This document shows positions 1-21,891 of a stretch of DNA of 27,385 bases, piece after piece. The stretch is from a virus (taxonomy: Duplodnaviria; Caudoviricetes), in IMG/VR virus record IMGVR_UViG_3300021412_000030, positions 1 through 27,385 of that record; one strand, 5' to 3'. The notes under the pieces are model-generated. The model made no database searches. It saw only the letters and a list, made by a program, of their open reading frames with translations, and had not been told where the DNA came from. Made by a program: the position numbers and the translations under genes. Position 1 is the first letter of the stretch; each line of letters opens with the position of its first letter.

Positions 1-14
1 TTCACTCCAGTCAT
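1..14 (-). CDS. 5' start of a gene running off the window (partial)
   Basis: ATG at 14-12 preceded by GAGGTGA RBS on the - strand, downstream of the cold-shock gene. Confidence 0.4.
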
Positions 15-18
15 ACTC

Positions 19-39
19 ACCTCTCACTTCGTTCGAGGT
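19..39 (-). repeat. GA/GNA hairpin element copy 1
   Basis: - strand ACCTC GA AC GAA GT GA GAGGT. Confidence 0.75.
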
Positions 40-42
40 TTA

Positions 43-390
43 CTATCCAACTTCAGCAGTCCGAGCTTCAGCGAGGACCTCTACCGCGCGCGGCCCGCGC
101 TCTGCTATCTCCAGTCTGAAAGAGACTCTCTCCTTGATCTCCAACTGCCGGAAGTCTTTGAACTGTTTTGAAACGGAAGTCCAGTGGAAGAAGTAGTCCT
201 TTCCGTCATCTCCCGCTATGAATCCGAATCCCTTCTTGAGATTCCTGATAGCTCCTCTTTTCCAATCTGAGCTACGCTCAGCTTTTTGCTCTAGGTCAGG
301 ATCTTTGGAGGACGAGCGAAGCGAGGCCTTCTGAAGATCGGATAGTGAGTGTAGAGCAGGCGTAATTGAAGATCTGGATAGCCAAGACAT
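43..390 (-). CDS. cold-shock domain protein with N-terminal extension
   Basis: RNP1 KGFGFI and RNP2 YFFH motifs, C-terminal RGPRAVEV; strong AAAGGAGG RBS. Confidence 0.9.
   Translation of the reverse strand: MSWLSRSSITPALHSLSDLQKASLRSSSKDPDLEQKAERSSDWKRGAIRNLKKGFGFIAGDDGKDYFFHWTSVSKQFKDFRQLEIKERVSFRLEIAERGPRAVEVLAEARTAEVG
309..329 (+). repeat. GA/GNA hairpin element copy 2
   Basis: AGGAC GA GC GAA GC GA GGCCT. Confidence 0.65.
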
Positions 391-412
391 AGTTCCTCCT
401 TTGAGATTTTAG

Positions 413-433
413 AAAGTGAACGAAGTGAACTTT
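413..433 (+). repeat. GA/GNA hairpin element copy 3
   Basis: AAAGT GA AC GAA GT GA ACTTT. Confidence 0.75.
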
Positions 434-495
434 GTTTTTGGTGCGGGACGCTTCGCGTCCAGTCTGCTCTATCCTTTGAGATGGGCGTAGCCCAG

Positions 496-1506
496 CTATC
501 GAATGCTATCGGACTCAACACCGGATCCAGTAGACGGAGACACAGGGACGACATCGTAGGTCTTAGCCTCTCTCTGTTCCGGTCGGTATAAGTGCAAATG
601 CAGTCCGCTCTCGGCGGCCTGGTCTTTAGGAGATACCTTGTCGAGGATCACGGCCATGTCCTTCCCGACGCGCGCCAAGTCTGTCGCCTTTGCTATCTTC
701 TTAATTTTCTCTCCATCTAGGATATCTAGAACGTCTCCTAGCCGAGAGGCAGCTTTCAGCGCGAGGTCTTGCTTGATAATCTTCAGAGCCGCATCTAGCT
801 CTTTCTTCGGCTCCTTTTCTACCGGCGTCCTAAGTGAATGCTCATATGCCCACGATTGCGATGGATCGAGATTGAACGCGCGCCCGGCATCAGAACATCC
901 GACCATAAGTGCAGTCTCAGCTATACCGATCTGCGCTTCTAGATTGCCCCTATACTTGAAGTAGTCTGAGGTGCGATTGACGAGGGAGTCTAGCTGAGAG
1001 AGTTTCGATATCGCCTTCGGTGATCTTTTACTGTCTAGCACGGAGTCTATGAGGGAGTCTATTTCTTCTCCTGTTTCACTTGATCCTGCTTCTTTATCTG
1101 ATTCATCTCGAGCGAAGCGAGAGGTAAGATGGTGCCCGTCGCTGACTTGCTTACCGAACCCGTCTTCGTCCCCAGTGCGCTCAAAGACGGCGAAGCCGGC
1201 TTCTTCATCCCCGCTATCGAGGACTTCACTAGCTCCAGCACCTTCCCCACTAGAATCGCTATCCCGACTATGTTTCCGATCTTCCCTATCTTCATTTGAT
1301 TGCTCTTTCTCCCCATCGCGAGGCGATCTCTCTGTCTCTGATTCTCCATCTAATGGCGAGCGCAGCGAGTCATCTGTCTGCTGATTAGCGATCTCTTCAG
1401 AGAGGTCAGAGACTATCTTGTCTAGACTCTGCCTATGGAGATCCTTGAGGCGATTCCTGTCTGAGTTAAGCCGGTCGCGCGCGGATGACGATGACATGAA
1501 TCCCAT
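496..1506 (-). CDS. hypothetical protein; acidic disordered N-half, helical C-half (possibly terminase small subunit-like)
   Basis: 336 aa ORF with AAGGAG RBS and own promoter; the TerS idea rests only on position and general character. Confidence 0.6.
   Translation of the reverse strand: MGFMSSSSARDRLNSDRNRLKDLHRQSLDKIVSDLSEEIANQQTDDSLRSPLDGESETERSPRDGEKEQSNEDREDRKHSRDSDSSGEGAGASEVLDSGDEEAGFAVFERTGDEDGFGKQVSDGHHLTSRFARDESDKEAGSSETGEEIDSLIDSVLDSKRSPKAISKLSQLDSLVNRTSDYFKYRGNLEAQIGIAETALMVGCSDAGRAFNLDPSQSWAYEHSLRTPVEKEPKKELDAALKIIKQDLALKAASRLGDVLDILDGEKIKKIAKATDLARVGKDMAVILDKVSPKDQAAESGLHLHLYRPEQREAKTYDVVPVSPSTGSGVESDSIR
1105..1125 (+). repeat. GA/GNA hairpin element copy 4
   Basis: ATCTC GA GC GAA GC GA GAGGT. 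Confidence 0.7.
1353..1373 (+). repeat. GA/GNA hairpin element copy 5
   Basis: ATGGC GA GC GCA GC GA GTCAT. Confidence 0.7.
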
Positions 1507-1521
1507 TAGATTCTCCTTTAA

Positions 1522-1542
1522 GATCTGAGCGCAGCGAAGATT
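1522..1542 (+). repeat. GA/GNA hairpin element copy 6
   Basis: GATCT GA GC GCA GC GA AGATT. Confidence 0.75.
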
Positions 1543-1593
1543 CGAAGCCGAACTAGATATTGATATGGCTCAGCTACCGCATATCGCGAAGCG

Positions 1594-1622
1594 ATCATAC
1601 CATACTTATAGGCGAAAAGCAA
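1594..1622 (-). promoter_or_regulatory. sigma70-type promoter for 496..1506
   Basis: TTGCTT-17 bp-TATGAT with TG extended -10. Confidence 0.65.
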
Positions 1623-1648
1623 GAATCGGCAAAATCCCTAGTAAATCC

Positions 1649-1665
1649 TCGCCTGGCGAACAATT
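1649..1665. promoter_or_regulatory. palindromic operator-like site TCGCCtGGCGAACAATT
   Basis: inverted 14/16 match to 4391-4406. Confidence 0.5.
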
Positions 1666-2156
1666 TAGCTGAGCTATGGTATTTATCTAAGCATGCTTAT
1701 CTTCTCCGGTCTCTCGTTCTCGTTCTCTACTTACTCTAGCGATGAACCTATCCGGTCCCGGCCGGTCATGGGACCCGTTCGGACGGGGAGCCGGGGGGCC
1801 GATCCGCTGCCGGCCGTTTGCTCTCGGCGCTCGATGCCTGCCTTGCTCTCACCGGCTGATGGTTACTCTTACTCGAGCGCTCGGCCTGGCCGTCGAGGTT
1901 CGAGCGCCTGGACACTATGACCTGGCTGTCGGCATCGAGAGAGAGATAGGGCGAATAAACAGTGATAGGACGGCGAACGAACGTCGAACTAAACAAGGGC
2001 TAAATGTAGGCGAATAGACAGCGAAGACCGCGAGAAAATGAGTTGGGAATACTGAGGTAGCCTAGAGAGAAGTGCGCTCTCCCAGAAGCATCCTAGTGCG
2101 TTTTGGAGCTATAGAAAGGGCTGTTGAAAAGCTGTGGAAAACCCTGTAAGTGAGAC

Positions 2157-2188
2157 AAAAAGAGGGAGCACCTTACGGCGCTCCCTCT
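2157..2188 (-). terminator. intrinsic terminator
   Basis: AGAGGGAGC/GCTCCCTCT stem followed by T-tract on the - strand, just after ORF 2200..2487. Confidence 0.8.
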
Positions 2189-2199
2189 CTCCCGGCGGC

Positions 2200-2487
2200 T
2201 CAGTTCTCGAGGTAGTCAGAACTATCCTGATGGTTTGGTTGAGCAGGCAGGAAGTAAAGTCGCCCATCGAAACGCTCGACGATCTGAGTATTCACCAGCA
2301 CATCGATGGCAAGCTCTACATCTTTACAGGTGAGAAAACTCGGTCGAGTCATCTGCAAGTCATCTACTTGGATGCCGGGCTCAGAGCGAACAATCCGCCC
2401 TACCGTGGAGCAAACCGCGAACGCCGTCGCGAGTCCGCCGAGAGAATCAACAAGGGAAAGGAACGAAGGATTCTGCATTAAGGTCAT
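2200..2487 (-). CDS. hypothetical protein
   Basis: GAAAGGAAG RBS and a downstream terminator. Confidence 0.6.
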   Translation of the reverse strand: MTLMQNPSFLSLVDSLGGLATAFAVCSTVGRIVRSEPGIQVDDLQMTRPSFLTCKDVELAIDVLVNTQIVERFDGRLYFLPAQPNHQDSSDYLEN

Positions 2488-2500
2488 GGCACACTTCCTT

Positions 2501-2572
2501 TCAGCTGAGTTTCATCCTACGGACTACGGTGAGAACCGAGAACACGATTAACACACCCGAGAAAAATTCCAT
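2501..2572 (-). CDS. putative 23 aa hydrophobic peptide
   Basis: MEFFSGVLIVFSVLTVVRRMKLS; stop codon overlaps the RBS of the next gene. Confidence 0.35.
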   Translation of the reverse strand: MEFFSGVLIVFSVLTVVRRMKLS

Positions 2573-2650
2573 CAATCACCGGCCTTTCAGGTTCCGAGTA
2601 ACGAAGCAAACAACCATGCACACACTCTAGCACACCTGTAGAAAAAAACA

Positions 2651-2683
2651 TGTGAAAAATCTGTGTAAAATCTGTGACAATTT
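2651..2683 (+). repeat. three 11-bp tandem repeats, DnaA-box-like
   Basis: TGTGAAAAATC TGTGTAAAATC TGTGACAATTT. Confidence 0.6.
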
Positions 2684-2685
2684 TA

Positions 2686-2694
2686 TGGTATAAT
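2686..2694 (+). promoter_or_regulatory. extended -10 promoter
   Basis: TGGTATAAT. Confidence 0.45.
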
Positions 2695-2774
2695 GCCCTA
2701 ATCGGCGCGCGCCGTTCTGGGTCGCGAGCGGGGTCTCAAGAGATACAGCGGAGGGAACTAGGAGAGAATGCAGG

Positions 2775-2808
2775 AAAAAGAAAGGGCCAGGTTTTCACCC
2801 GGCCCTTT
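2775..2808 (-). terminator. intrinsic terminator (possibly bidirectional)
   Basis: AAAGGGCC/GGCCCTTT stem with TTCTTTTT tract on the - strand, after ORF 2837..3394. Confidence 0.8.
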
Positions 2809-2836
2809 AGACTCTGATGAGCGGCACGAAGCGAAG

Positions 2837-3394
2837 CTAGACCGCGAGTCCCACTTTCATCCGCTGACGCACGACAATCTCCCTCGCCTCTTCTGCCGTG
2901 AATCCGCCGTTAGCGACCAGACCATCGACGGCCTTTTTGATCGCTTTCTCTGGACCTTGCAGGATATTGCTGAGAGCCTGCCTTACTTCCGCTCTCCTAT
3001 TCAAGTCGTAACCGTAGTTGAAATAGTCGCAGGCTCCGTCTGCTTTCTCTACTTCGGTTCGTTCGTCTTCTCCCTCTTCTGGCTTCGGTGTGCTAGGAAC
3101 CATCTTGCCGTTGCACAATGCAAGCTGGCCCTTTGCCGACATCGCGCTGAGACGAACGTATCGCGATACCTCGTCCTTTCCCGTCGGACTCTTATCCTTC
3201 CCGATTTTCACTTCATCGATGCTTGAAGCCACGTCTCCCGCGGCGATTGCAGCTTTCACCATATCGGGAAGTGCCGCCATCAACCGCGTTTCCTGATGTT
3301 CCACCGTCTCTACCTCTGCGACCCCTGTTCCTGAAGTGCCGCCGCCGACTGTCTCTGTTACCTGAAGATTTTCTCCCGCGATACGCTTTGCCAT
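2837..3394 (-). CDS. hypothetical protein in its own transcription unit
   Basis: GAGGT RBS before MAKRIAG at 3394 (ORF track starts at 3430); flanked by promoter and terminator. Confidence 0.75.
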   Translation of the reverse strand: MAKRIAGENLQVTETVGGGTSGTGVAEVETVEHQETRLMAALPDMVKAAIAAGDVASSIDEVKIGKDKSPTGKDEVSRYVRLSAMSAKGQLALCNGKMVPSTPKPEEGEDERTEVEKADGACDYFNYGYDLNRRAEVRQALSNILQGPEKAIKKAVDGLVANGGFTAEEAREIVVRQRMKVGLAV

Positions 3395-3447
3395 TTTATC
3401 TACCTCTTCTAGATTCTGATTAAGCGCCATTGCCTAACCATAGAACA

Positions 3448-3476
3448 AGCTTAGCATGGCTAGAACAGGAAGTCAA
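3448..3476 (-). promoter_or_regulatory. sigma70-type promoter
   Basis: TTGACT-17 bp-TAAGCT with TG extension. Confidence 0.75.
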
Positions 3477-3637
3477 TAGGGCGACGAAGTTTATTTTCGT
3501 CCCCTTTTCCGGACAGCCAACCGCAAGTGAGTGCCTAGATAAATAAAGTGTGGCTTTTTTACCACAGTGCGCGTGCGCGGCCGGCCGCGATCACCAGGGC
3601 AACCCGATCGCCCACGATGCCCCGTAATGAGCGTGCA

Positions 3638-3668
3638 TGGGCGTAGGAACAATGATCACCTACGCCCA
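3638..3668. other. perfect 10-bp stem hairpin
   Basis: TGGGCGTAGG-11 nt-CCTACGCCCA. Confidence 0.55.
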
Positions 3669-4024
3669 GCTATGCTAGTATTCCGGAACCTACGGCCGCA
3701 CTGAACAATTTTAAAACCGCGCGAACAATTATTTCGTCGAAAATCCGAAAATTTCAACGCGCTTCTATCTAGTATCTAAACAGTATCTAGGCAGTATCGG
3801 GCTAGTATCGGAATAGGTGCTAAACCTATGATCGGCCGAAATTGCTAGGAAATAGTGCGAGATCAGCGATCAGAGTAGGTGTCTACTCGTCTTGTGCTTC
3901 CTCTTTGTTGACCACTTTTGAGGTCGGTAAATTTTACACTGTAGATTTTACACGGGTCGGCAAAAATGTTGGCATAGTTTATGGATATTTTTTACTATAT
4001 ATATAGACAATCCACACCTAAACT

Positions 4025-4080
4025 GACCTAAAAAGTGGTCACTTTGTCCCCAAAAGTGGTCATGACCTCAAAAGTGGTCA
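4025..4080 (+). repeat. three 17-bp iteron-like direct repeats
   Basis: GACCTAAAAAGTGGTCA, GTCCCCAAAAGTGGTCA, GACCTCAAAAGTGGTCA; inverted copy at 3909-3925. Confidence 0.8.
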
Positions 4081-4363
4081 CCCAAACCACCGCGCCAGCC
4101 TACCACATACCCCTTGCGTTCCAGGCCGATCTGTGCTAAGCTAAGCAGATCAAAGGTTTAGCAGATCGAACATGCGAAAATACCTATACCGATACTACCT
4201 AGATGCGGCCCCGAGACTGTTTAGATACTGGTTAGATGCGGCTCGAAAGTTTTCAAATTCGCTCAAAATAATTGTTCGCCTGAAACGTTCGTTCATACGT
4301 TCTTACAATTTCGTAATCGCTATGCGATATTCACGCCATTCAAATTCGCTAGATCGCGTAAGA

Positions 4364-4407
4364 ATTACATAGCTAGGTGACGAAAATTATAATGTTCGCC
4401 GGGCGAA
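4364..4407 (+). promoter_or_regulatory. probable promoter for the rightward block with overlapping operator palindrome
   Basis: ATTACA-18 bp-TATAAT (4388-4393) followed by TTCGCCgGGCGAA. Confidence 0.45.
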
Positions 4408-4533
4408 TCTTTAGGTAATAGAGTCCGTTTAGGCATACAGAATGCCGGAAAGTGTAGCAAATTTACCACACTTTTTTAGTCTAGTAGGCTTTATCGTAGT
4501 TGAAAAAGTATCTAAACTGGAAAGGACACGAGA

Positions 4534-5214
4534 ATGAGAAAGAAAGGCCGGGTAATTAGTCAGGAACAGATAGACAGGGCAATCGATGCCTGGATTCAGA
4601 AGGATCCAGACCATGCCAGAACAAGACTGAAGAAATTCGCCGAGTTTTCACTTGGGGTTGGTCTACTAGCCACAACAGACGTTCCTACACTTGATCTAGA
4701 GGAGGTTTCGTCAGATTTATTCGTCGGAGAGCTACCGATAGCTAAGTGGTGGAAAGGATTAACGTCGAAGGATCGAAGATCTATCTCAGTTAGATGGCAC
4801 TCTAGCTCTATTCGAGATTTGAGATCTCGTTACGATGCAGTCCAGGGAGATAAATCAGGTATCGAGGTAACGGAGATCGATCCAAGCGGTAGATCTATGA
4901 AGTTAAAAGGGAAATACACAGGATGGACCAGAGAGAGTAAGAAGGAAGGAAGGAAAATGAGAAGCATAGCCGAGATCGGTGCTCTATGGCCGCTATGTAA
5001 GCAGTGCGGTCATGTAGCACAGTCTCACAACGACTCAGGTGGACCCGATGACGGAGATCCGATGTGTGCTGGATCCTACAAAGAAAACGGATATAGTAGA
5101 TTTACATGTAGCTGCACAGGATACGACGGACCGACCTGGGAAGAGTTTAAGAAGCTGCTGACGCCGGAAGAGCTCGCTTTCTATAATCTTCGCTGCGCTC
5201 AGATTTCTAAGTAG
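4534..5214 (+). CDS. hypothetical protein with C-terminal Cys/His zinc-binding domain
   Basis: CxxCGHxxxxH...C...CxC motif; internal RBS and ATG at 4957. Confidence 0.65.
   Translation: MRKKGRVISQEQIDRAIDAWIQKDPDHARTRLKKFAEFSLGVGLLATTDVPTLDLEEVSSDLFVGELPIAKWWKGLTSKDRRSISVRWHSSSIRDLRSRYDAVQGDKSGIEVTEIDPSGRSMKLKGKYTGWTRESKKEGRKMRSIAEIGALWPLCKQCGHVAQSHNDSGGPDDGDPMCAGSYKENGYSRFTCSCTGYDGPTWEEFKKLLTPEELAFYNLRCAQISK
5185..5205 (-). repeat. GA/GNA hairpin element copy 7
   Basis: - strand AATCT GA GC GCA GC GA AGATT. Confidence 0.75.
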
Positions 5215-5234
5215 GAAAGGACAGGAGACTAAAT

Positions 5235-6152
5235 ATGGAGCACAGATTCGGGAAAGAAAAAAGCCTGTCAAGATTGAAAAGAGAAGATGAGTTAGCGGAC
5301 CACCTTGGGGTCGAGCAGAACGAGCACGACTTCGAGGAGTATCTTAAAAGGAAGGAAAAGGCATGGAATCTCGCTTCGCTCGATTCAGCGGAGAAAATGT
5401 ACTCACAGAGCATCGATCCCAAGAGAGAGAAGAGAGAACCTGCCAGAAATGTGGAGGGAGAATCAGAGAACAGTGGGTCTTCGACAGAGATAGACGGAAC
5501 AAGCCTGCCCATCGAATCCTTATCTGCACTAAGTGTGGGAAACAGTCTCGGACCTGATCAGAAGGGGACTAAACTAGATCTAAGGAATCATGGTGAAGGA
5601 ACGATCTACGCGGGAAAGCACATCACCGAGACGATAGTAGATCTCGAGATCGATCCAGAGTGGAAGGAACTCTTCAAGAAAACCTATAACTCCGCCGTCC
5701 CTAAACTCACACTAGAGCAGGTCATAGAGAAGTTCCACAAGGTAGACAGGGCTATCTATCTCCTCGGGGCTATCCGTAATGCTCTGAAACCTTACGCGAT
5801 GGAGGCTCTGCTTAAGAGTGCATCTGAAGAGGAACGTCAACAAGCTCTGAAGTTAGATGCCGAATTCCGCAAGAGATCTCGTAAGGCTCGATCCGCTCGA
5901 TCTGAAGTCGAGAATCCGGATGGTCCTGGATCTAGCTCTCGACCACGATCCAAGCGCGTGAGTCTATCTGTCAACAAATCTTCACTTCGTTCAGATTCTA
6001 AAGGTAAGACGAAGGCTCAGAAGACGGTCGATACTCTCTATGGTCTACAGATGGATCAGGCTGAGATAGAGTCTAACTGTGCGCGGCAGGGGCTTCTGGA
6101 TGACATGACTCGGAAGTATATCTCGGGCAAGTTCTCGGGAGGTGCTAAGTGA
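5235..6152 (+). CDS. hypothetical protein
   Basis: 305 aa ORF, AGGAG RBS. Confidence 0.75.
   Translation: MEHRFGKEKSLSRLKREDELADHLGVEQNEHDFEEYLKRKEKAWNLASLDSAEKMYSQSIDPKREKREPARNVEGESENSGSSTEIDGTSLPIESLSALSVGNSLGPDQKGTKLDLRNHGEGTIYAGKHITETIVDLEIDPEWKELFKKTYNSAVPKLTLEQVIEKFHKVDRAIYLLGAIRNALKPYAMEALLKSASEEERQQALKLDAEFRKRSRKARSARSEVENPDGPGSSSRPRSKRVSLSVNKSSLRSDSKGKTKAQKTVDTLYGLQMDQAEIESNCARQGLLDDMTRKYISGKFSGGAK
5366..5386 (-). repeat. GA/GNA hairpin element copy 8
   Basis: - strand GAATC GA GC GAA GC GA GATTC. Confidence 0.75.
5977..5997 (-). repeat. GA/GNA hairpin element copy 9
   Basis: - strand AATCT GA AC GAA GT GA AGATT. Confidence 0.75.
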
Positions 6153-6355
6153 TATCTCATGAAACCCACGCTCATGGTCTGACGGTTGGAGAGCTGATGC
6201 AGGTTCTATCCTTACTTGATTCCTCACAGAAGATAGTGTTTAGCGACGTGCAGTTCGGTGACTTCGATGTGCTCGGTCCTGGCATTGTAGGCAGACTGAG
6301 TGAGGACAATTTTCAGCAGGATTTGCGTCCGATTCTTCGACTGAGGAAACGGTAA
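6149..6355 (+). CDS. hypothetical protein
   Basis: GGAGGT RBS, GTGA overlap with the upstream stop; LTVGELMQVL start typical of small phage proteins. Confidence 0.65.
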   Translation: MISHETHAHGLTVGELMQVLSLLDSSQKIVFSDVQFGDFDVLGPGIVGRLSEDNFQQDLRPILRLRKR

Positions 6356-6375
6356 ACTATCAGGGAGGTTACGAA

Positions 6376-6564
6376 GTGATTGAGATATATGGCTCTGACA
6401 AATCCTTAGTAGTCGAGACAGAGAACTTTGTGGTCCATATCAGAGACGAGAAAGGTGAGCTAATCGTCAAGGCTAATCGAAAGATAGACGATACAGAAAG
6501 ATTGCCACTGGCCTACCTTCTCGGTCTCAACTACATGATCTTCAAGGCGAGAGAAAAGAAGTAA
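6376..6564 (+). CDS. hypothetical protein
   Basis: GGGAGGT RBS, GTG start. Confidence 0.65.
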   Translation: MIEIYGSDKSLVVETENFVVHIRDEKGELIVKANRKIDDTERLPLAYLLGLNYMIFKAREKK

Positions 6565-6591
6565 GATAGATAGAAGAGAAAGGATAGACAA

Positions 6592-8298
6592 ATGAGAACG
6601 ATACTCAACACAAAGTGTCCATACTGCAAAAAGCCGGCCAAAGAGAAGAATCGAGAGGAGATAGATGGGGAAATCTGGCTCAATCTAGAGTGCGGTCACA
6701 TCATCGTCAAGGACATGCTGAAGCCAGAGGATATCCAGATAGTCTCCTCTGACGGTAAGGTTCCATTTCCCTTTCAGCATTCTCCTACCGGCTTATTCAC
6801 CTTAGCTGACGGAAGCACACACGAATCGACAGTCAGCTTCCTAGAGCGTGCGGACTGTAACGGTCTGTGCCTACACGAGATGGGTCTTGGCAAGACTGTG
6901 ATCGAGTGCATCCTTCTCGCGCGCAATCCCCAACTTCTACCTGCTTTAATTGTCGTGAAGAGTGGACTACGCGCGCAGTGGTTCATGGAGATATTTCGAT
7001 GGACCGGAAAGGCTGCCCAGGTCATTACGTCCAGTCGAGAACTACCGCTGTTTGACTACTTCGACATCGTGATCATCTCGATCGATACCCTCCGCCTGGT
7101 CCGTCCAGATGTTAAGGTAGTCTCAGAGTTCGACATGATCGTATCCGAGAATGCCGGTAAGAAAATAGGCCCTCGACCGATCATATGGACCGATGAGATA
7201 TGCGCTAAGTTTAAGCATATCGCGATAGATGAGAGCCAGAAGATCAAGAACTCAGGATCTGCCAGGACTCAGGCTCTCCGCAAGATCGTTAGTGCATCCG
7301 AGAATCAGGGAGGGACTAAACCAAGAGTAATCTGCTATTCAGGGACCAATATCGAGAAGCACGCTGGTGAGTTTTTCGTCACTCTCAATCTGACCAGACC
7401 TGAGCTATTCCCAAATGAGTCTGTCTATCAGCGAGCCTACTGCGATATCGATCCAGAGACAGGCAAGATACAGGGGCTAAGGAATCCAGAGAGGTTCAAG
7501 GAGAGGACGAAGGACTTCATCATCCGATACAAACGCGATAATGTCCTTCCCGACCTCCCAAAGATTTTCAGACAGTTTAGACTAGCAGAACTAGAAGGCG
7601 GAGAACTACAGGCATACATCAAGGTCGTAAAGGAGTTTCAAGAAAGGATGGATGATCCAGAACATCCGATGATTCCGACAGAGATCTTAGGTTATCTGTC
7701 TAAGATGCGACATATAACTGGGATAGCGAAAACGAAGTCTGCGCTCGTGTTCATCGAGGAGTTCCTGTTAGAGTCGGAAAGAAAACTCGTGATTTTCCTG
7801 CATCACAAAATGGCCGGTTCTATACTAATGAAAGATTTAGAAAAACTATGTCGCGAAGCGGCATTCAATCCTCCATTACAGCTACACTCTGATCTAGACA
7901 TGAATCAGCGAGTAGCAGTGATTGAGGAGTTTAGGAAGCCAGGCAATCGTCTCTTAGTCGCCTCAACACTAGCATCAGGCGAGGGTCTGAATTTACAATT
8001 CTGTCAAGATTGCCTGATCATGGAGAGACAGTGGAATCCAGCAGCAGAAGAGCAGGCGGAGGCTCGCTTCCCTCGACCTAGACCAGATGACCCTTGGCCG
8101 CCCGGAGCTAGGATCAATGCTCACTATCTCATCGCAGCCGGGACGATAGACGATTTTCTCACCGACATCATCGAGACCAAAAGATCTAACGTGGCTCAGA
8201 CATTGGATGGCGAAGAAATCCAGTGGAATGAGGACTCGATCATCGCAGAGCTTGCTAAGGTTCTACAGACGAAAGGACTGAAGAAGTGGAAGCTATAG
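6592..8298 (+). CDS. SNF2-family (SF2) helicase/ATPase with N-terminal zinc ribbon
   Basis: HEMGLGKT Walker A, DESQ Walker B, SGT motif III, STLASGEGLNLQ, WNPAAEEQAEAR. Confidence 0.92.
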   Translation: MRTILNTKCPYCKKPAKEKNREEIDGEIWLNLECGHIIVKDMLKPEDIQIVSSDGKVPFPFQHSPTGLFTLADGSTHESTVSFLERADCNGLCLHEMGLGKTVIECILLARNPQLLPALIVVKSGLRAQWFMEIFRWTGKAAQVITSSRELPLFDYFDIVIISIDTLRLVRPDVKVVSEFDMIVSENAGKKIGPRPIIWTDEICAKFKHIAIDESQKIKNSGSARTQALRKIVSASENQGGTKPRVICYSGTNIEKHAGEFFVTLNLTRPELFPNESVYQRAYCDIDPETGKIQGLRNPERFKERTKDFIIRYKRDNVLPDLPKIFRQFRLAELEGGELQAYIKVVKEFQERMDDPEHPMIPTEILGYLSKMRHITGIAKTKSALVFIEEFLLESERKLVIFLHHKMAGSILMKDLEKLCREAAFNPPLQLHSDLDMNQRVAVIEEFRKPGNRLLVASTLASGEGLNLQFCQDCLIMERQWNPAAEEQAEARFPRPRPDDPWPPGARINAHYLIAAGTIDDFLTDIIETKRSNVAQTLDGEEIQWNEDSIIAELAKVLQTKGLKKWKL

Positions 8299-8335
8299 CT
8301 CGGAAGACCTCGCTCAGCTTAAAAAGGAGAAAGAA

Positions 8336-8527
8336 ATGACGAGTAATTGGGATGAGGCACAGACTCACTACATGCTGGAAAGGATAGCCGAGCGCGGCCA
8401 GGATCTCACTAAATGGGAGGAGGATTTCGTCTACTCGATTAACATGCTGGTCAATGAGAGAAGGGAGCTATCCGAGAAGCAGATGGATACTCTGAGGCGT
8501 ATCTATCAGGAAAAGGCTTTCGACTAA
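8336..8527 (+). CDS. hypothetical protein
   Basis: AAGGAG RBS; LTKWEEDFV..LSEKQ..L..I pattern common in small phage proteins. Confidence 0.7.
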   Translation: MTSNWDEAQTHYMLERIAERGQDLTKWEEDFVYSINMLVNERRELSEKQMDTLRRIYQEKAFD

Positions 8528-8546
8528 TCTTCGCTGCGCTTAGATT
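8526..8546 (-). repeat. GA/GNA hairpin element copy 10
   Basis: - strand AATCT AA GC GCA GC GA AGATT. Confidence 0.7.
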
Positions 8547-8573
8547 CTAGGGAGAGGATTGAGAGGAAGAGAA

Positions 8574-8744
8574 ATGACTTTGAACTGTCACAATTGTGGC
8601 AAAGAGATCCCACCTGAAGAGGGACGAATCGTCGAGGTGCCTACTGGAACCTGGATCGAGTGCAAAGAGTGTGTAGAGAAGAGGGCTATAGACTATGTTA
8701 TCGGACGAGTTCGCGATGGATCGCTTAAGGGAGGAAAGAAATGA
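8574..8744 (+). CDS. small zinc-finger protein
   Basis: CHNC...CKEC; GAGG RBS before ATG 8574. Confidence 0.65.
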   Translation: MTLNCHNCGKEIPPEEGRIVEVPTGTWIECKECVEKRAIDYVIGRVRDGSLKGGKK

Positions 8745-8875
8745 TGATTCTATACCCAATCGCCTGCATCATCGCAGCGATTATCCTAGCCGTCCTCAGT
8801 ATGATTCTAGACAGGCTCATACCGGATGAGGATATGTATCAGGGGATCGACAAGAGAGAAAGGAAAAGAAAGTGA
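8741..8875 (+). CDS. 44 aa single-TM protein
   Basis: MMILYPIACIIAAIILAVLSMILDRL..., GGAGG RBS, ATGA overlap. Confidence 0.6.
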   Translation: MMILYPIACIIAAIILAVLSMILDRLIPDEDMYQGIDKRERKRK

Positions 8876-9039
8876 CCCTAACATTCATCACCGTCTGGCT
8901 GCTAGTATTCATAGTCTTACTGTCAGCCTTCTGGTTTATCAACTGGTGCTTGGATGAGTTTTTGATTGAGGTAGAGATTGATGAGAAGTCTGAAGGAGAA
9001 AAGAATGCACCACCACATCACGATGTCAATAGACAGTGA
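8872..9039 (+). CDS. 55 aa single-TM protein
   Basis: MTLTFITVWLLVFIVLLSAFWFINWC..., GTGA overlap. Confidence 0.5.
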   Translation: MTLTFITVWLLVFIVLLSAFWFINWCLDEFLIEVEIDEKSEGEKNAPPHHDVNRQ

Positions 9040-9190
9040 TAAGCTAAGAGCTATTCAAGATTACCTGAAAAGCGATTTTGCGTTTATCGACGTGGATATT
9101 ACACCGGACGATCCAGAGATTACTAATGAGCTACGCAAGATATTCTTGCACATCCTGGGCTCTATACGGGATTACAAGTTACCAGTTTAA
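9005..9190 (+). CDS. hypothetical protein
   Basis: AAGGAG RBS before ATG 9005. Confidence 0.6.
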   Translation: MHHHITMSIDSDKLRAIQDYLKSDFAFIDVDITPDDPEITNELRKIFLHILGSIRDYKLPV

Positions 9191-9210
9191 GTCTGAACGA
9201 AGTGAAGACT
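9190..9210 (+). repeat. GA/GNA hairpin element copy 11
   Basis: AGTCT GA AC GAA GT GA AGACT. Confidence 0.75.
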
Positions 9211-9217
9211 AACTCGC

Positions 9218-9246
9218 TTGACTTTTAGCCCAACTTGATCTATACT
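9218..9246 (+). promoter_or_regulatory. sigma70-type promoter
   Basis: TTGACT-17 bp-TATACT in an intergenic gap. Confidence 0.8.
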
Positions 9247-9344
9247 TAGTAGATAAGGCGATCAGGCTCACTTAGACCTGAAGATGGCAAATATCTAAGA
9301 GTGAAAAAAAAATGAAGAAGAATGAGGAGACTAGGAGAGAAAAG

Positions 9345-9647
9345 ATGACTGACAACCAGAGAGTTATGGCCCTGGCGAAAATCATACGGTCCTATGCTCC
9401 AACTAAGAAGGATGATAGGATCTTGATGGAGGGAATAGAGAGGCAGAAGGATCTCACAGATGCAGAGATTCTCAAAGATCTGTCCTGCACTCTCCAAGAT
9501 GGACTCTATTATGGAAACTGGCCCTGGAATCGCGCTGCGATTGGATCGGTCGACATTGACAGGAGGAGAGAGACAGACAAGGAGGAAGGAGAGATCGTTC
9601 TAGGATTGGGAGATCTATCAAAGATTGAAGTAGAGGAGGGAAAGTGA
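9345..9647 (+). CDS. hypothetical protein
   Basis: AGGAG RBS before MTDNQ (alternative start 9312). Confidence 0.65.
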   Translation: MTDNQRVMALAKIIRSYAPTKKDDRILMEGIERQKDLTDAEILKDLSCTLQDGLYYGNWPWNRAAIGSVDIDRRRETDKEEGEIVLGLGDLSKIEVEEGK

Positions 9648-9868
9648 TAAGATTCTACTGTGTGACGTGTAAGAAAACAAAGCGTGCGCGGCGTAGGGTC
9701 TTGGGAAACGACGGAGAAAGTGAGACCTACTGCGCGCGGCATAATCCTCTCAGACTCTCTATGCAATCCAACCGGGCAGTATTTGTCAGAACTAGAGTGA
9801 AAGGTCACAACCGCGCGCAGGTCAAACTACCACAGCTTAACAAGCAGGCTGCTAAGAGAAAGAAGTAA
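9644..9868 (+). CDS. small basic Cys-containing protein
   Basis: CVTC...CARH, GAGGAGG RBS, GTGA overlap. Confidence 0.6.
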   Translation: MIRFYCVTCKKTKRARRRVLGNDGESETYCARHNPLRLSMQSNRAVFVRTRVKGHNRAQVKLPQLNKQAAKRKK

Positions 9869-9872
9869 AGAA

Positions 9873-10322
9873 GTGAGCATCAAACATCAGTCTATGTATC
9901 GTCAGCGTAATCTTGGACTTCAGGTTGATCCTCTGGTTATTTCATCAAAGGACGGCGACATCTCAATCTATCCTATAGTTCGAATCTCCTCTGAGCTTGC
10001 AGCATCTGAACTAGGAAAGGTCGAGGAGTTTAAGTGGGAATCTGGCAAGTATTTGGCTATCATCAAGGGGATCGATGTATTCATGGGAATCACTGGGACA
10101 GACATACTCCGTGTTCGTCTAGTCATTTATTTGGATTCAAAGGTAGATGTCTGGGAGGGATTCAAGTTCTTTGGTGTGCCTGAGATGGCTACGAACTTTT
10201 TGCATGGACTTGGAATAGGGCCTGGAAAAGTTAGTCCAGATGACATCGTAGGCAATACTATAGAGGTAGAGATTAAGGTAAGCGAGATCCTGGGTAGGAA
10301 GATGGTAGATATACGTTACTAG
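9873..10322 (+). CDS. hypothetical protein
   Basis: 149 aa ORF tiled within the operon. Confidence 0.6.
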   Translation: MSIKHQSMYRQRNLGLQVDPLVISSKDGDISIYPIVRISSELAASELGKVEEFKWESGKYLAIIKGIDVFMGITGTDILRVRLVIYLDSKVDVWEGFKFFGVPEMATNFLHGLGIGPGKVSPDDIVGNTIEVEIKVSEILGRKMVDIRY

Positions 10323-10344
10323 CTCAGATCTAAGAAAGGACAAG

Positions 10345-10947
10345 ATGACCGCATTCCCTCCGCGTGGCATAGAGATCATTGATCAGATCCGAGCTACCTT
10401 CCCAGATCTAGCTAAGTTAAGGGATGAAGAGTCTAGAAGGAAGCTGACCAGACTAATAGTCGAACAGATGTGTTATGAGTTGGGTCCAGCGTGGGGAACT
10501 AAGGCGCGCGACGCTCGGTCTCCTCAGTCTAAAGACTCAATAGCCTACAAGAGGCAGGATGGATCGATGGACATCTGGGACTGGCAGAATGGTGAGACTA
10601 GAGATAGACAGATTAAGTGGGGAGATCCTCCATCATACGCCAACGTGAGCGATGCCTACTTCATCGAGGTCCAGCCTATCAATCATCTCTACGTTGCTCC
10701 CATACCTATCACACTTAGACTATTGAACACCGATGAGATGATAGTAGTGATAGATGAGAAGATAGAAAGACTAGACGAGAAGCTGACGGATCTAGAGAAG
10801 AGCATCGCGACCTTAGAGTCCTTTACATCGATCACCCTACAAGAACTCTCGGTAGCTCTCCAGGATATCAGGACTGCCCAGGATCGGATGCTTGAGTCGA
10901 CAGGATTCCTAAAACTAACGCTCAGACCTCGCGAGACTAAGAAGTAA
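10345..10947 (+). CDS. hypothetical protein with C-terminal coiled coil
   Basis: AAAGGA RBS; heptad region IDEKIERLDEKLTDLEKSIATLE. Confidence 0.75.
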   Translation: MTAFPPRGIEIIDQIRATFPDLAKLRDEESRRKLTRLIVEQMCYELGPAWGTKARDARSPQSKDSIAYKRQDGSMDIWDWQNGETRDRQIKWGDPPSYANVSDAYFIEVQPINHLYVAPIPITLRLLNTDEMIVVIDEKIERLDEKLTDLEKSIATLESFTSITLQELSVALQDIRTAQDRMLESTGFLKLTLRPRETKK

Positions 10948-10961
10948 CTAAGAAAGAAGAA

Positions 10962-11411
10962 GTGAAGATGGCTAAGAATAGAACTAAAATCAACGGACTA
11001 CCAGTGATTGATAGCCTAAGAGATCTAGATGTAGATGTGCAGGTCTCGGACATAAAGCAGGCGAGGAAGAATGACCCTGCCAACTGTGCTATCGCTAGGG
11101 CTATCAAGAGGAAGACAGGGAAAGAGGCTAAGGTCTATCTCACTCGGACCTATGTAAAAGAGGAGGATCACTGGGATAGATATATAACACCACCAAGAGC
11201 TAGCCGTGAGATCGTCTCATTCGATAGGAGTCAGACATTCGATCCGGGGCAGTATAAGATCAATTATCCAAGTAAAGGTCAATCTCTAGAATATCAGAGA
11301 AGTCGTGATCGTAAAACAACGTGGAAAGGGAGAAAGGATAGATCAGCTCCAAGATCAGCACCGCAGAGGACTAAGAATGTAAGGGAATATGATCTGAAAG
11401 GGAAAAAGTAA
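10962..11411 (+). CDS. hypothetical basic protein
   Basis: 149 aa ORF; DPANCAIARAI motif. Confidence 0.7.
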   Translation: MKMAKNRTKINGLPVIDSLRDLDVDVQVSDIKQARKNDPANCAIARAIKRKTGKEAKVYLTRTYVKEEDHWDRYITPPRASREIVSFDRSQTFDPGQYKINYPSKGQSLEYQRSRDRKTTWKGRKDRSAPRSAPQRTKNVREYDLKGKK

Positions 11412-11894
11412 ATGAGTCTGGTCGATAAGAAGCGGATGATCGATCAACTGATCCTCCACGAAGGTCTGAGGCTAACTACGTATACCGACTCGACTGGCAA
11501 CGTCACGATAGGAATAGGCTATAATGTCTCAGACCGTGGATGGGGAGATCTGGAGCGCGCGATCGATAGGACGGTAGACAAGGATAAGCCGAAGATTACT
11601 AAGGCTGAGGCGATCCTAGTGTGTGACCACGACATAGAGATGTTCGAGATGTTTCTTAGGAAGTGGAAGATTTACCCTACTCTAGACCAGGTTCGTATGC
11701 GGGTAGTCCTAGATCTAGCCTACAATCTAGGTTCGGTCAAACTCAAAGAGTTCGTCAATACTAAGAAAGCGATCGAAGCCTATAACTTCGGCATAGCATC
11801 TGATCATCTCGCTAAGTCTAAGTGGGCCAAGCAGGTCAAGTCGCGCGCAGTTAGGCTTATCAAGATGCTCAGGACAGGCATTGACTATATCTAG
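11412..11894 (+). CDS. GH24 T4-type lysozyme (endolysin)
   Basis: catalytic E-x8-D-x5-T in HEGLRLTTYTDSTGNVTIGIG; T4-like C-terminus SKWAKQVKSRAVRLIKMLRTG. Confidence 0.93.
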   Translation: MSLVDKKRMIDQLILHEGLRLTTYTDSTGNVTIGIGYNVSDRGWGDLERAIDRTVDKDKPKITKAEAILVCDHDIEMFEMFLRKWKIYPTLDQVRMRVVLDLAYNLGSVKLKEFVNTKKAIEAYNFGIASDHLAKSKWAKQVKSRAVRLIKMLRTGIDYI

Positions 11895-11914
11895 AGGCTC
11901 GCTACGCTCGCTCT
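11894..11914 (-). repeat. GA/GNA hairpin element copy 12
   Basis: - strand AGAGC GA GC GTA GC GA GCCTC. Confidence 0.65.
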
Positions 11915-11941
11915 TAAATCTAGAAAGGGAGGGATAGGAAA

Positions 11942-12136
11942 ATGGATAGAAGAGAAGGGCTAATACTGATCGAGGAGACCTTGGCAAAGATAAGGAAAAT
12001 GGAGGACACAGAGGTAGCCATAGAGTTACTAGGAGAACTAGAGTATACAGTCGGGTTGCTCACCGAGGATTTAGTAGAGAAAGCAAAGATAGAGAAAGCA
12101 GAGCAGGCGGAGTTAGAGCAGGAGACCGAGGAGTAG
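11942..12136 (+). CDS. small acidic protein
   Basis: RBS present; Glu-rich 64 aa ORF. Confidence 0.65.
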   Translation: MDRREGLILIEETLAKIRKMEDTEVAIELLGELEYTVGLLTEDLVEKAKIEKAEQAELEQETEE

Positions 12137-12139
12137 GCT

Positions 12140-12592
12140 ATGTCTGTAGCTTTCTTAGAGTGCTCAATTATCATAAGGGAATCTTGGGAAAAGCATGAGA
12201 GAATCGAATGCTGTCCTCAGTGTCATAAGCATAAGCAGTTGATCTACGTCCGACCATATCGTGAGGGAGTCTTAGGGGAGGCAGGGAATACCGATTGGGA
12301 TCTATGTGTCGAAGGGATTGTCTGTTGCAATCTCTACCACTTCACTAGATCCCTACCTAGATCTTGGTGGGTCGAGAAGGCTAGGGAGTTAGGAGTTTAC
12401 CGAGAAGACATGCGTGGTTACATCTATCCAGCTAGTCCACATCGGAATACAGATGTTGAGAAGCAGCAGAGGGAGGTAGCGGATGACATACTACAAAGAT
12501 CTGGACGGAGAATACGAAGATCGAAATGGAGAGACGAAGATGAAAGAGAAAGACTCGGAGGTCTGCGTGTTTTTCAACGGCGAAGTAGATGA
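12140..12592 (+). CDS. hypothetical Cys-rich protein
   Basis: GAGGAG RBS; CCPQCH and CC motifs. Confidence 0.65.
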   Translation: MSVAFLECSIIIRESWEKHERIECCPQCHKHKQLIYVRPYREGVLGEAGNTDWDLCVEGIVCCNLYHFTRSLPRSWWVEKARELGVYREDMRGYIYPASPHRNTDVEKQQREVADDILQRSGRRIRRSKWRDEDERERLGGLRVFQRRSR

Positions 12593-12728
12593 GATGGCTA
12601 GTAAAGCTATAGAGTCGATAGTCAAGACAATTACTGAGCTATTGATCTATACCTATAATAAGGGATTAGAGAATGCATTGAAGCACGAATTGGAGAGGAC
12701 AAGAGAGATCATAAGGAAAGGAGGATAG
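12483..12728 (+). CDS. hypothetical protein overlapping the upstream gene
   Basis: GGGAGGT RBS; stop abuts the next start. Confidence 0.55.
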   Translation: MTYYKDLDGEYEDRNGETKMKEKDSEVCVFFNGEVDEMASKAIESIVKTITELLIYTYNKGLENALKHELERTREIIRKGG

Positions 12729-12729
12729 G

Positions 12730-13650
12730 ATGGTAGAACGAGAGCAGCTAATCTTCAACCTCGACTCACAGATCCTCAATACGATGGATCAGTGTGCAGA
12801 GAAATATAGGCTAGAGCACATCGAGCACTGGCGTCCTATGAGAAAGGCTCTTGCCCTAGAGAAAGGATCGCTCATGCACACTATGCTGAGAGTCTATCGA
12901 CAGGGCAAGAAGGATGGTCGAGTGGGCCTAGAAGAACATGGTCGCCTGGTCGATAAGGCTATCATGGTTAGTCGAGAGGCTTCATCATCTATGTCTATAG
13001 AATCGGACGAATTGGAAGAAGAGATTAGAACTTTTCAATCATACGTCCTCCGATGGCAGTATGATGGCTGGGAAATCTTAGACATAGAGCAGCCATTCTC
13101 TAAGATTCTATACGAAGATGAAGATCAGATCGACTACAACGGTAAGCTATACTCCGGCTTGACCATAATATATGAGGGAGTTATAGACGCACTCGTGAGA
13201 GATCCGAAGGTCGGGATAGTCGTAGTGGATACCAAGACAGAAGGTAGGAAGTCCTATCCCTACATCCTATCGAATCAATTCCAGGGATACGAGTGGGCAT
13301 TCAACTGTCCAGTTATAGTGGATAAGGTTGGCTTCCAGAAAACTTTAGCTGACAATGAAAGGTTCACTCGGCTAGAGCATAGATCAGGTCAGCCTGCAAT
13401 AGATGAATGGCGCGCGGATGCGATCGAGAAGGTCAGAGAAGCGATAGCCTGGCATAGAGATCTAACGTCCGGACGGAGGGATAGCCTGCGTAAGAATCGG
13501 ACATCTTGTGACAAGTATTCGGGATGCATCTTTCAGGGTGTCTGTAAGGTGCCAAAAGAATCCAGAACACACAAGCTACAGGCATTCTTCTTTAAGGACA
13601 AGCAATGGGATCCATATGATAGGCCAGACTTCGATGAGATAGCAGGATAG
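12730..13650 (+). CDS. PD-(D/E)XK exonuclease, Cas4/AddB-like
   Basis: GSLMH, E..F, GVIDAL, VVDTKT, QFQGY; one N-terminal Cys plus C-terminal CxxxxxCxxxxxC (Fe-S ligand pattern). Confidence 0.85.
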   Translation: MVEREQLIFNLDSQILNTMDQCAEKYRLEHIEHWRPMRKALALEKGSLMHTMLRVYRQGKKDGRVGLEEHGRLVDKAIMVSREASSSMSIESDELEEEIRTFQSYVLRWQYDGWEILDIEQPFSKILYEDEDQIDYNGKLYSGLTIIYEGVIDALVRDPKVGIVVVDTKTEGRKSYPYILSNQFQGYEWAFNCPVIVDKVGFQKTLADNERFTRLEHRSGQPAIDEWRADAIEKVREAIAWHRDLTSGRRDSLRKNRTSCDKYSGCIFQGVCKVPKESRTHKLQAFFFKDKQWDPYDRPDFDEIAG

Positions 13651-13669
13651 ATCTCGCTACGCTCGCTCT
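13649..13669 (-). repeat. GA/GNA hairpin element copy 13
   Basis: - strand AGAGC GA GC GTA GC GA GATCT. Confidence 0.65.
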
Positions 13670-15228: not shown

Positions 15229-15413
15229 CTATCGGTGAGGCTATTGAACTTCTGACTAAACTCAAAGGTAGGCATGGCGATATTGAGGTATTCTTCGACT
15301 GTCCACAGTGTGGGAAGTCGTTCAGTCCCTCTACAGTAACAGCTATGGCTGTGCATTTCTCAGATGAAGAGTCAGTTAATTCGGGGAAAGGGAGGAAGAA
15401 TGCTGACCGATGA
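15225..15413 (+). CDS. small hypothetical protein
   Basis: GTGA overlap; MTIGEAIELL...HGDIEV, CPQCG. Confidence 0.6.
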   Translation: MTIGEAIELLTKLKGRHGDIEVFFDCPQCGKSFSPSTVTAMAVHFSDEESVNSGKGRKNADR

Positions 15414-15618
15414 GGAGCTTCACGAGAGATACTACTATCACAAGCCAAACGAAAGGAAGCAAGAGCTGCACGACCTGATCAATAAGAAGATGGAGGACGT
15501 GGCAAGAGTAGTGGAGCACAACCTCCCTGAAGGCAGAGAGAAATCTCTGGTCCATACGAAATTGGAAGAGGCCAGGTCCTGGGCTAATTCGGCTATCGCG
15601 AGGTCGAAGGATCTCTGA
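15400..15618 (+). CDS. Acb2/Tad1-like helical hairpin protein (putative immune-signal sponge)
   Basis: YYYHKP...LPEGREKSLVHTKLEEARSWANSAIAR; GGGAGG RBS before ATG 15400. Confidence 0.7.
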   Translation: MLTDEELHERYYYHKPNERKQELHDLINKKMEDVARVVEHNLPEGREKSLVHTKLEEARSWANSAIARSKDL

Positions 15619-21889: not shown

Positions 21890-21891
21890 GA

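Follow-up and report, generated by a model that had tools for sequence, protein, structure and literature searches.

The 27,385-base stretch analysed here (hereafter the window) is the entire contig of IMG/VR record IMGVR_UViG_3300021412_000030, a Caudoviricetes phage sequence originating from soil metagenomes and covering ∼59% of the phage genome. It carries 13 dispersed copies of a 21-nucleotide (nt) hairpin built from a 5-base-pair (bp) stem, a tandem GA/GA step, a short inner stem and a GNA triloop. Our analysis indicates that this hairpin family is real, selected and lineage-specific and that it is built from a known, widespread module; that the fold itself is real and under selection we regard as very probable. 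The copies had been listed in an earlier note made from the sequence alone, and every one was found at the position and on the strand claimed there. They are given below with their neighbouring open reading frames (ORFs) and, where relevant, Shine-Dalgarno (SD) sequences.

19..39, minus strand: copy 1, AC-GAA-GT, directly past the cold-shock gene stop; coding strand, a polarity exception
309..329, plus strand: copy 2, GC-GAA-GC, within the cold-shock N-terminal extension; template strand
413..433, plus strand: copy 3, AC-GAA-GT, 22 nt upstream of the cold-shock ATG; template strand
1105..1125, plus strand: copy 4, GC-GAA-GC, in the weakly conserved N-terminal half of ORF 496-1506; template strand
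1353..1373, plus strand: copy 5, GC-GCA-GC, in an insertion unique to this phage's ORF 496-1506; 15/16 identical to ColE1 1331-1346
1522..1542, plus strand: copy 6, GC-GCA-GC, 15 nt upstream of the ORF 496-1506 ATG; template strand
5185..5205, minus strand: copy 7, GC-GCA-GC, in the final codons of ORF 4534-5214; template strand
5366..5386, minus strand: copy 8, GC-GAA-GC, interior of ORF 5235-6152, 10 nt upstream of an internal SD and ATG; template strand
5977..5997, minus strand: copy 9, AC-GAA-GT, in the low-complexity tail of ORF 5235-6152; template strand
8526..8546, minus strand: copy 10, AA-GC-GCA-GC-GA, overlapping the ORF 8336-8527 stop; template strand
9190..9210, plus strand: copy 11, AC-GAA-GT, past a stop, 7 nt upstream of a sigma70-like promoter; coding strand, a polarity exception
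11894..11914, minus strand: copy 12, GC-GTA-GC, at the lysozyme stop, 2/5 stem pairs in register; template strand
13649..13669, minus strand: copy 13, GC-GTA-GC, at the PD-(D/E)XK nuclease stop; template strand

The strict core YGA-RC-GNA-GY-GAR is present in 12 of the 13 copies, the copy at 8526 having AA in place of the first GA. Searched for as YGA(GC-GNA-GC or AC-GNA-GT)GAR, it occurs 12 times in the window, compared with a mean of 0.03 and a maximum of 1 in 300 synonymous-codon shuffles, the comparison that the earlier note had proposed as a check. When the structural pattern is required to have 4 or more flank pairs in an unbroken run, 8 matches are obtained (mean 0.02, maximum 1 in 200 dinucleotide shuffles). 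The outer stems, said to vary in sequence and yet remain paired, do so: Watson-Crick pairing holds at 57 of 65 flank positions, as against a mean of 28 and a maximum of 51 when arms are permuted among copies (20,000 permutations), and the weakest stem is that of the 11894 copy. Covariation of the inner pair is equally clear, with GC..GC in nine copies and AC..GT in four (8 and 4 among the strict cores of the window) and no mixed forms. The loops are GAA (7), GCA (4) or GTA (2), and never GGA. The proposal that structure rather than sequence is conserved is correct for the outer stem but not for the core, which is almost invariant. As the earlier note stated, 11 of the 13 copies lie on the template strand (p 0.011 at 0.5; 3e-8 against base composition, which would favour the coding strand for a purine-rich motif, so that the copies run contrary to it) and none lies past 13.7 kb, all being within positions 1-13,669 (p about 1e-4). 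Gene junctions hold seven copies, against a background of 9.6%, and not the eight claimed, the 5185 copy being within the last codons of a gene. Six copies lie inside genes, where they are read in three different frames and occupy poorly conserved or inserted stretches.

The loop is closed by a C-G pair in all 13 copies, and all 25 GA steps are flanked by a pyrimidine on the 5' side and a purine on the 3' side, the favoured context for sheared tandem GA pairs. Folding with ViennaRNA DNA parameters, in which sheared pairs are not modelled, gives -0.7 to -3.5 kcal/mol; the 5-bp stem is mostly A-T and ends in an A-T pair in 10 of the 13 copies. As RNA, the transcribed strand at the 11 template copies forms only weak folds (-0.2 to -4.8 kcal/mol) and has no U tract, so the reading as an RNA hairpin was rejected; an Rfam search returned no match at gathering scores. 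Since fold-back copying cannot oppose GA to GA and the RNA strand folds poorly, selection most likely acts on a hairpin formed by the purine-rich strand as DNA. Excerpts of PMC11014236 state that a GGA loop favours duplex over hairpin, with which the lack of GGA loops among the copies agrees. The module itself corresponds to the GCGNAGC mini-hairpins of Hirao, which excerpts of PMC13037366 report at phage and plasmid priming sites (G4, St-1, alpha3 and RSF1010 ssiA) and at N4 promoters, and describe as nuclease-resistant and poorly bound by SSB, the protein that binds single-stranded DNA. The C-G closure is the same (nine copies are GCGNAGC and four ACGNAGT), whereas the tandem GA pairs, the variable 5-bp stem and the 13 polarised, dispersed copies are not in those excerpts. 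We found no description of the tandem-GA element in phage genomes or lambdoid origins in the full-text literature searched, which covers few subscription journals. A YTA triplet stands 5' of the stem, at -10 to -6, in 8 of the 13 copies compared with a 10% background, in three registers, by a post hoc test chosen after the data were seen; among stemmed copies from other genomes it is found in 4 of 66. CTG adjoins the stem in 1 of 13 copies on the 5' side and 3 of 13 on the 3' side.

Other features of the window that bear on the hairpins are as follows.

3480..4484, no strand: family-wide set of nested inverted repeats flanking an AT tract (centre 3995-4006), in the gap separating divergent genes
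1768..1776, plus strand: ATGGGACCC motif, family-wide; candidate packaging start and second possible strand-flip axis
2819..2839, plus strand: degenerate copy, past the ORF 2837-3430 stop; template strand
8294..8322, minus strand: hairpin variant at the SNF2 stop, having GA/GA pairs and a loop of four bases; template strand; identified by eye
12192..12212 (core 12197-12207), plus strand: structural match with A-T loop closure, within ORF 12140-12592; coding strand
9218..9246, plus strand: sigma70-like promoter, 10/12 consensus, 17-nt spacer
9873..10322, plus strand: gene unique to this phage, possibly a second DUF669-like single-stranded DNA (ssDNA)-binding protein, as a lead only
20434..21672, plus strand: DUF3987 ATPase, labelled 'primase' in PHROGs; no primase domain, and weak fold matches to MCM-like AAA+ and winged-helix proteins

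Looser hairpin variants are found at 264-284, 446-460, 1583-1595, 2819-2839 and 8294-8322; the one at 2819-2839 differs by three bases in a strain from a second study, and the A-T-closed match at 12192..12212 may be due to chance. Around the cold-shock gene (window 19-497) GNA hairpins number six and occur in both orientations; two lie within the N-terminal extension, which is longer than in most relatives compared.

The layout of the copies centres on window 3480-4484, an imperfect, nested palindrome about a kilobase long, which has TATATA at its centre and contains three 19-nt repeats (4024-4081). Most relatives have an AT tract flanked by nested inverted arms at this position, and the AT-centred palindrome is likely to be the replication origin of this phage family. 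Its interpretation as a fixed genome end was rejected, the contig ends of relatives being scattered. Eleven of the 13 copies point to its centre and, provided that the palindrome is the origin, lie on the template for synthesis leaving the centre; the strand flip described earlier therefore holds overall, with one exception per side (the copies at 19 and 9190, which face away). The strict flip spans 1542 to 5185 and brackets the palindrome, the divergent promoters and the ATGGGACCC motif. That motif is present between ORF 496-1506 and ORF 2837-3430 in 21 related loci (including L002, L036, L040, L045, L050, L117 and L125), often in two to three copies with a C-run ahead and a G-run behind, and contig L050 begins 22 nt ahead of it. 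It is a candidate terminase (pac) site by sequence, and ORF 496-1506 may be the small terminase subunit. Contig depth appears 1.3-1.5 times higher at about 1950-3860, one run has a hole at 1730-1943, and one short piece starts at 1752; none of these can support a pac claim. Recombination or cassette sites were also rejected, there being no joints, deletions or inversions in contigs of four runs from two samples, although contigs drop rare variants.

Syntenic relatives were gathered by searches with SNF2 and PolA, giving an overlapping close set of 43 loci (43-70% protein identity, 654 kb) and a distant set of 92 loci. Conservation in relatives, a check set beforehand, was not found: there are no stemmed copies in the 43 close loci, no covarying core in the whole records G001-G004 and no hairpin at the orthologous junctions of relatives. 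The hairpins are therefore not a family-wide system. Nor was an alternative repeat family obvious in five loci of relatives, although close to the pac-like motif of L001/L002 there are two mini-hairpins flanked by GA whose inner stem is 3 bp long. The distant set yielded 11 distinct stemmed copies; in two of these loci, L148 (1113-1123) and L154 (3583-3593), a hairpin is present at one and the same codon of SNF2, the two stems differing in sequence but each being completely paired. Sequence searches of cultured phages gave no relative above 29% identity, and no integrated relative was seen among the genome contigs searched.

The GCGNAGC-type core is widespread elsewhere: it was met in ColE1, in lambdoid initiator genes, in chromosomal repeats and at the origin of an Acinetobacter plasmid. 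Among 103 distinct flanks from unrelated viruses, the fraction with a complementary next pair is 0.66, compared with 0.28. The resemblance of copy 5 to the ColE1 site, pointed out in the earlier note, is borne out by 15 identical positions of 16 in the ColE1 record (NC_001371), where the exact core lies at 1332-1342 with a short stem, about 135 nt from the origin; phiX174 has the core with two mismatches at 2356-2366, in the F-G gap. The core is on the template strand of the initiator genes of six temperate-phage loci (L014, L015, L020, L319, L323 and L324, phages Mwe-JY08 and phiAX1 included; L014 and L020 are alike), adjoining A-rich or iteron-like repeats, and in the Rep_3 plasmid pMMCU1 (L325) a hairpin precedes an AT tract and iterons. 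In all seven of these origin-adjacent cases, which were retrieved with window-like flanks and are not a census, the hairpin strand runs origin-ward, as in the window. The remaining stemmed viral matches are mostly beside unannotated or unrelated genes, a search with the window-type flank pattern returned only 3 unrelated contigs, and a match in Salmonella phage 7-11 was dismissed as a chance core without a stem. Three to four long-stemmed copies on opposing strands cluster within a 500-base AT-rich gap in a 267-kb phage (L009, L011, L013), in what looks like an origin or control region.

Of the proteins that might read the hairpins, a primase was not found, and the earlier statement that none is visible is upheld: neither DnaG_N nor Prim-Pol was detected in the window or in 4 near-complete relatives, in searches whose positive controls matched. 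The DUF3987 ATPase gave a low-confidence model (pLDDT 53) with weak matches to winged helices and MCM chains (MCM best, E 1.4e-3) and no PDB sequence match. The gene at 9873-10322 sits behind the best sigma70-like promoter of the window, similar promoters flanking the early genes. Its product has no homologue elsewhere by our searches and is not detected by the family SSB profile; it resembles DUF669 ssDNA-binding proteins in the Atlas (score 0.92, TM 0.53-0.57), and its single-sequence model is uninformative (pLDDT 43, best Z 5.1). That it would be a second SSB is a lead only.

Our preferred, though tentative, reading is that the hairpins are priming or restart marks on the leading-strand template, comparable to single-strand initiation (ssi) signals; we consider this possible but would stop short of calling it probable. 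The 13 copies are variants of a single hairpin design, and prediction has only the purine-rich strand of the DNA folding in this way. The AT-centred palindrome would act as a bidirectional origin from which an MCM-like phage helicase would expose the leading-strand template. There the 21-nt hairpin, with its 5-bp stem, tandem sheared GA pairs and C-GNA-G cap, would stay folded amid SSB, and its complement could not fold. A host priming protein would then use the exposed foot, with its YTA 5' of the stem in eight copies, and the host primase would start or restart leading-strand synthesis at the marks, moving away from the origin. The priming role is the uncertain step of this explanation. It is suggested by the poor SSB binding of mini-hairpins and their presence at the G4 and RSF1010 priming sites, by the primase-less nature of the phage, by a polarity equal to that of the origin-adjacent copies and by the clustering of the copies towards the centre, with none past 13.7 kb. 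By analogy, the hairpins would work like a mini-hairpin-capped single-strand signal. Among known systems, the primase-type ssi of RSF1010 (ssiA/ssiB, with RepB') and the G4 origin are alike, if the palindrome is the origin, in placing a GNA-capped hairpin on the template for origin-leaving synthesis, an arrangement compatible with leading-strand priming; the G-site of R1/R100 is another primase-type single-strand initiation signal. Those systems differ in having one or two larger sites and a known primase, whereas the window lacks a primase gene and has 13 sites of 21 nt, of which the nearest is more than 1 kb away from the centre. The dispersed ssDNA signal proposed in the earlier note is retained in part, the strand-specific, selected DNA hairpin, the ColE1 link and the lack of a primase domain speaking for it and the absence from relatives against it. 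A broader version, which we think unlikely, would make the YGA-RC-GNA-GY-GAR hairpin on the unwinding-site-directed strand a general and so far undescribed origin mark for priming or helicase loading in lambdoid phages and iteron plasmids; this primase-less phage would have multiplied it 13-fold into a leading-strand restart chain, adding a YTA foot of its own and perhaps an extra SSB as well.

Several observations weigh against priming or restart marks. The close relatives share the replication genes, are also primase-less and have no stemmed copy, so the hairpins are unnecessary for replication in this family, and 10 of the 11 stemmed copies in distant relatives are on the plus strand of the SNF2 arm, with the opposite polarity. 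One or two marks would suffice for the leading strand; 13 exceed this need, and frequent restart has to be assumed. Within the window two copies face away from the centre, and none is nearer to it than 1.1 kb. The origin, the divergent promoters and the candidate pac site cannot be separated because all are within the strand-flip interval. YTA is the stop-codon complement, and CTAG is common in this genome. Elsewhere, the ColE1 core, presumably on the displaced strand, has a polarity opposite to that of the window, as has an unrelated phage fragment of 60% GC (L315, G005) with 10 stemmed junction copies, all on the coding strand and several in tandem pairs. In two Bacteroides-type loci (L005/L006) the copies come after their AT tract and share its strand. 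Chromosomal repeats without an origin role are capped by the core as well: the commonest 21-mer of the window is an internal arm of a ∼100-nt multi-copy chromosomal repeat in Rhizomicrobium and other metagenome-assembled genomes (L328-L390).

By the features tested, the hairpins are not members of the N4 promoters, the PriA sites or the tagged repetitive extragenic palindromes (REPs), but looser affinities with each have to be weighed. A REP-like dispersed element, that is, an ssDNA hairpin spread through gene conversion or by a trans-acting HUH-type enzyme, put up with where it falls in junctions or disordered parts of proteins and of little function to the phage, is an unlikely but real possibility. 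It would explain the lineage-specific occurrence, the six in-gene copies in three frames of unconserved or inserted sequence and the presence of the 21-mer in multi-copy chromosomal repeats. GTAG and CGTC REPs, too, are short palindromes that occupy junctions and flexible regions of proteins and have a four-base foot and a terminal A-T pair; the stem-bulge-stem form with such a foot (YTAR in 8 of 13 copies) resembles REP guide sequences in excerpts of PMC6006769 and PMC8266576, the frequent terminal A-T pair is as in the CGTC repeats of PMC3733652 (likewise in excerpt), and a Pirellulales genome (L340) has one TGTC-footed repeat with this exact core. The dimensions of CGTC REPs (an 8-9 bp arm from A-T, a 4-5 nt loop), however, fit only if GA/GA is counted as paired, and the YTAR foot, the AT-rich 5-bp basal stem and the mostly single copies are unlike REPs; the GTAG basal stem is 7-20 bp and GC-rich in the excerpts of PMC6006769. 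Searching for the GTAG-REP tag GT[AG]G 0-2 nt 5' of the stem gave GTAG in none of the 13 copies and no GTGG in the flanks, CGTC, TGTC and CCTC tags are lacking at the hairpin feet, no GTC foot occurs in 12 named copies, and four text supplements of PMC3733652 that were searched held no match. The Y1 transposase (PF01797) was detected in none of the five records (the window, 59% complete, and 4 relatives; the control matched 6 of 14). Stems that differ widely yet pair are a better fit to per-site selection than to recent copying, no joints between copies were seen in the contigs of the four runs, and HUH targeting, according to excerpts of PMC6006769, would place the element on the lagging template. 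We think it rather improbable that the hairpins are template-strand promoters or transcription control sites of the N4 kind, with starts a few bases from the stem foot, as was one suggestion of the earlier note. The N4 early promoters P1-P3 do share a template-strand GNA hairpin with a strand-asymmetric fold (ssDNA GAA or GGA hairpins in the excerpts of PMC13037366 and PMC13434306), the junction bias would be accounted for, and seven of the 11 template copies are 10-29 nt upstream of an ATG with an SD between, but SD sequences near copies are expected regardless because the junctions are short, and the other four template copies have no downstream SD start. No RNA polymerase family, virion polymerase included, was found among the 37 window proteins or in the structural arm of the complete relative; T7-type polymerase (PF00940) was not found in 4 near-complete relatives either, though its control matched nowhere. 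N4 P1 has an unbroken Watson-Crick stem after an AAAA run (PMC13434306, in excerpt), whereas GA/GA is in all window stems, AAAA precedes none of the 13, loops are pyrimidine-centred in six and copies inside genes are left unexplained; the flanking genes already have sigma70-like promoters, and the L315 copies are on the coding strand.

Slightly less likely again is a genome-end signal, in which packaged ends close to the candidate pac site would undergo 5' resection and hairpins on the surviving 3' tails would slow 3' exonucleases or seed re-synthesis and Sak4 annealing. The strict flip also brackets the ATGGGACCC motif at 1768, on either side the strand with the hairpins is the one ending 3', making the polarity fit equal on geometry alone, the phage encodes a PD-(D/E)XK nuclease, Sak4 and an SSB-like gene, and mini-hairpins are nuclease-resistant, as noted above. 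The pac role is itself a deduction, though, the degenerate plus-strand copy at 2819 is situated to the right of the motif, the relatives have the motif and the recombination genes but no GNA-hairpin polarity around the motif, and the junction bias is left unaccounted for. Classical PriA primosome assembly sites (pas) for lagging-strand priming we regard as quite improbable. ColE1 n'-pas/ssiA, with its exact core and short stem, and the two-mismatch version of phiX174 are the likenesses. The differences are the many copies in the window, the 11 of 13 on the other strand relative to the inferred origin, a polarity opposite to the lagging template if forks leave the centre, and the lack of an adjoining AAGCGG. 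This hexamer is a PriA contact motif; it is present in the ColE1 and phiX174 records, near both known sites, but within 60 nt of none of the 13 copies. That PriA loads DnaB at a hairpin pas is described in excerpts of PMC5778457. Least likely of all, and barely credible, is a mutational by-product in which chance cores had their stems perfected by fold-back template switching with no selection. Such copying could complement any 5' arm, and stems do arise widely, to judge from the pairing in the 103 viral flanks; but it can neither oppose GA to GA nor give 12 cores where 0.03 are expected, the polarity or the fixed 5-bp length.

About 19 kb of the phage genome lies outside the window; a complete relative, 46 kb in total, additionally encodes terminase, capsid and tail genes. 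No RNA dataset was listed among those containing the phage. The genes diverge at 3430-4534 and converge at 21,890, and their products include a cold-shock protein, an SNF2 helicase, a lysozyme, a PD-(D/E)XK nuclease, Sak4, an Acb2/Tad1 protein, a ParB-methylase, a UDG-PolA polymerase, the DUF3987 ATPase and an M15 peptidase protein of 1,361 residues. The Acb2/Tad1 hairpin-domain protein (window 15364-15618) belongs to an anti-defence sponge family, and few relatives have one. GTAC is found a single time in the 27 kb (ratio 0.02), and there is a shortage of several palindromic hexamers too, whereas CTAG, AGATCT and GCGCGC are frequent; this hints at host restriction systems. At window 9304 an A run is two bases shorter in all four sequencing runs, which may be a homopolymer error of the contig.

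Primase-less phages with a PolA-type polymerase are many, and the wider question is how they start DNA synthesis. A defined 21-nt hairpin with natural compensatory variants would make this question testable with oligonucleotides, and the presence of the core beside the iterons of cultured temperate phages and in a common Acinetobacter plasmid origin provides laboratory models. Should the hairpins prove to be only a REP-like passenger, their value would be reduced to illustrating well, in nature, how selection acts on DNA folds with sheared GA pairs.

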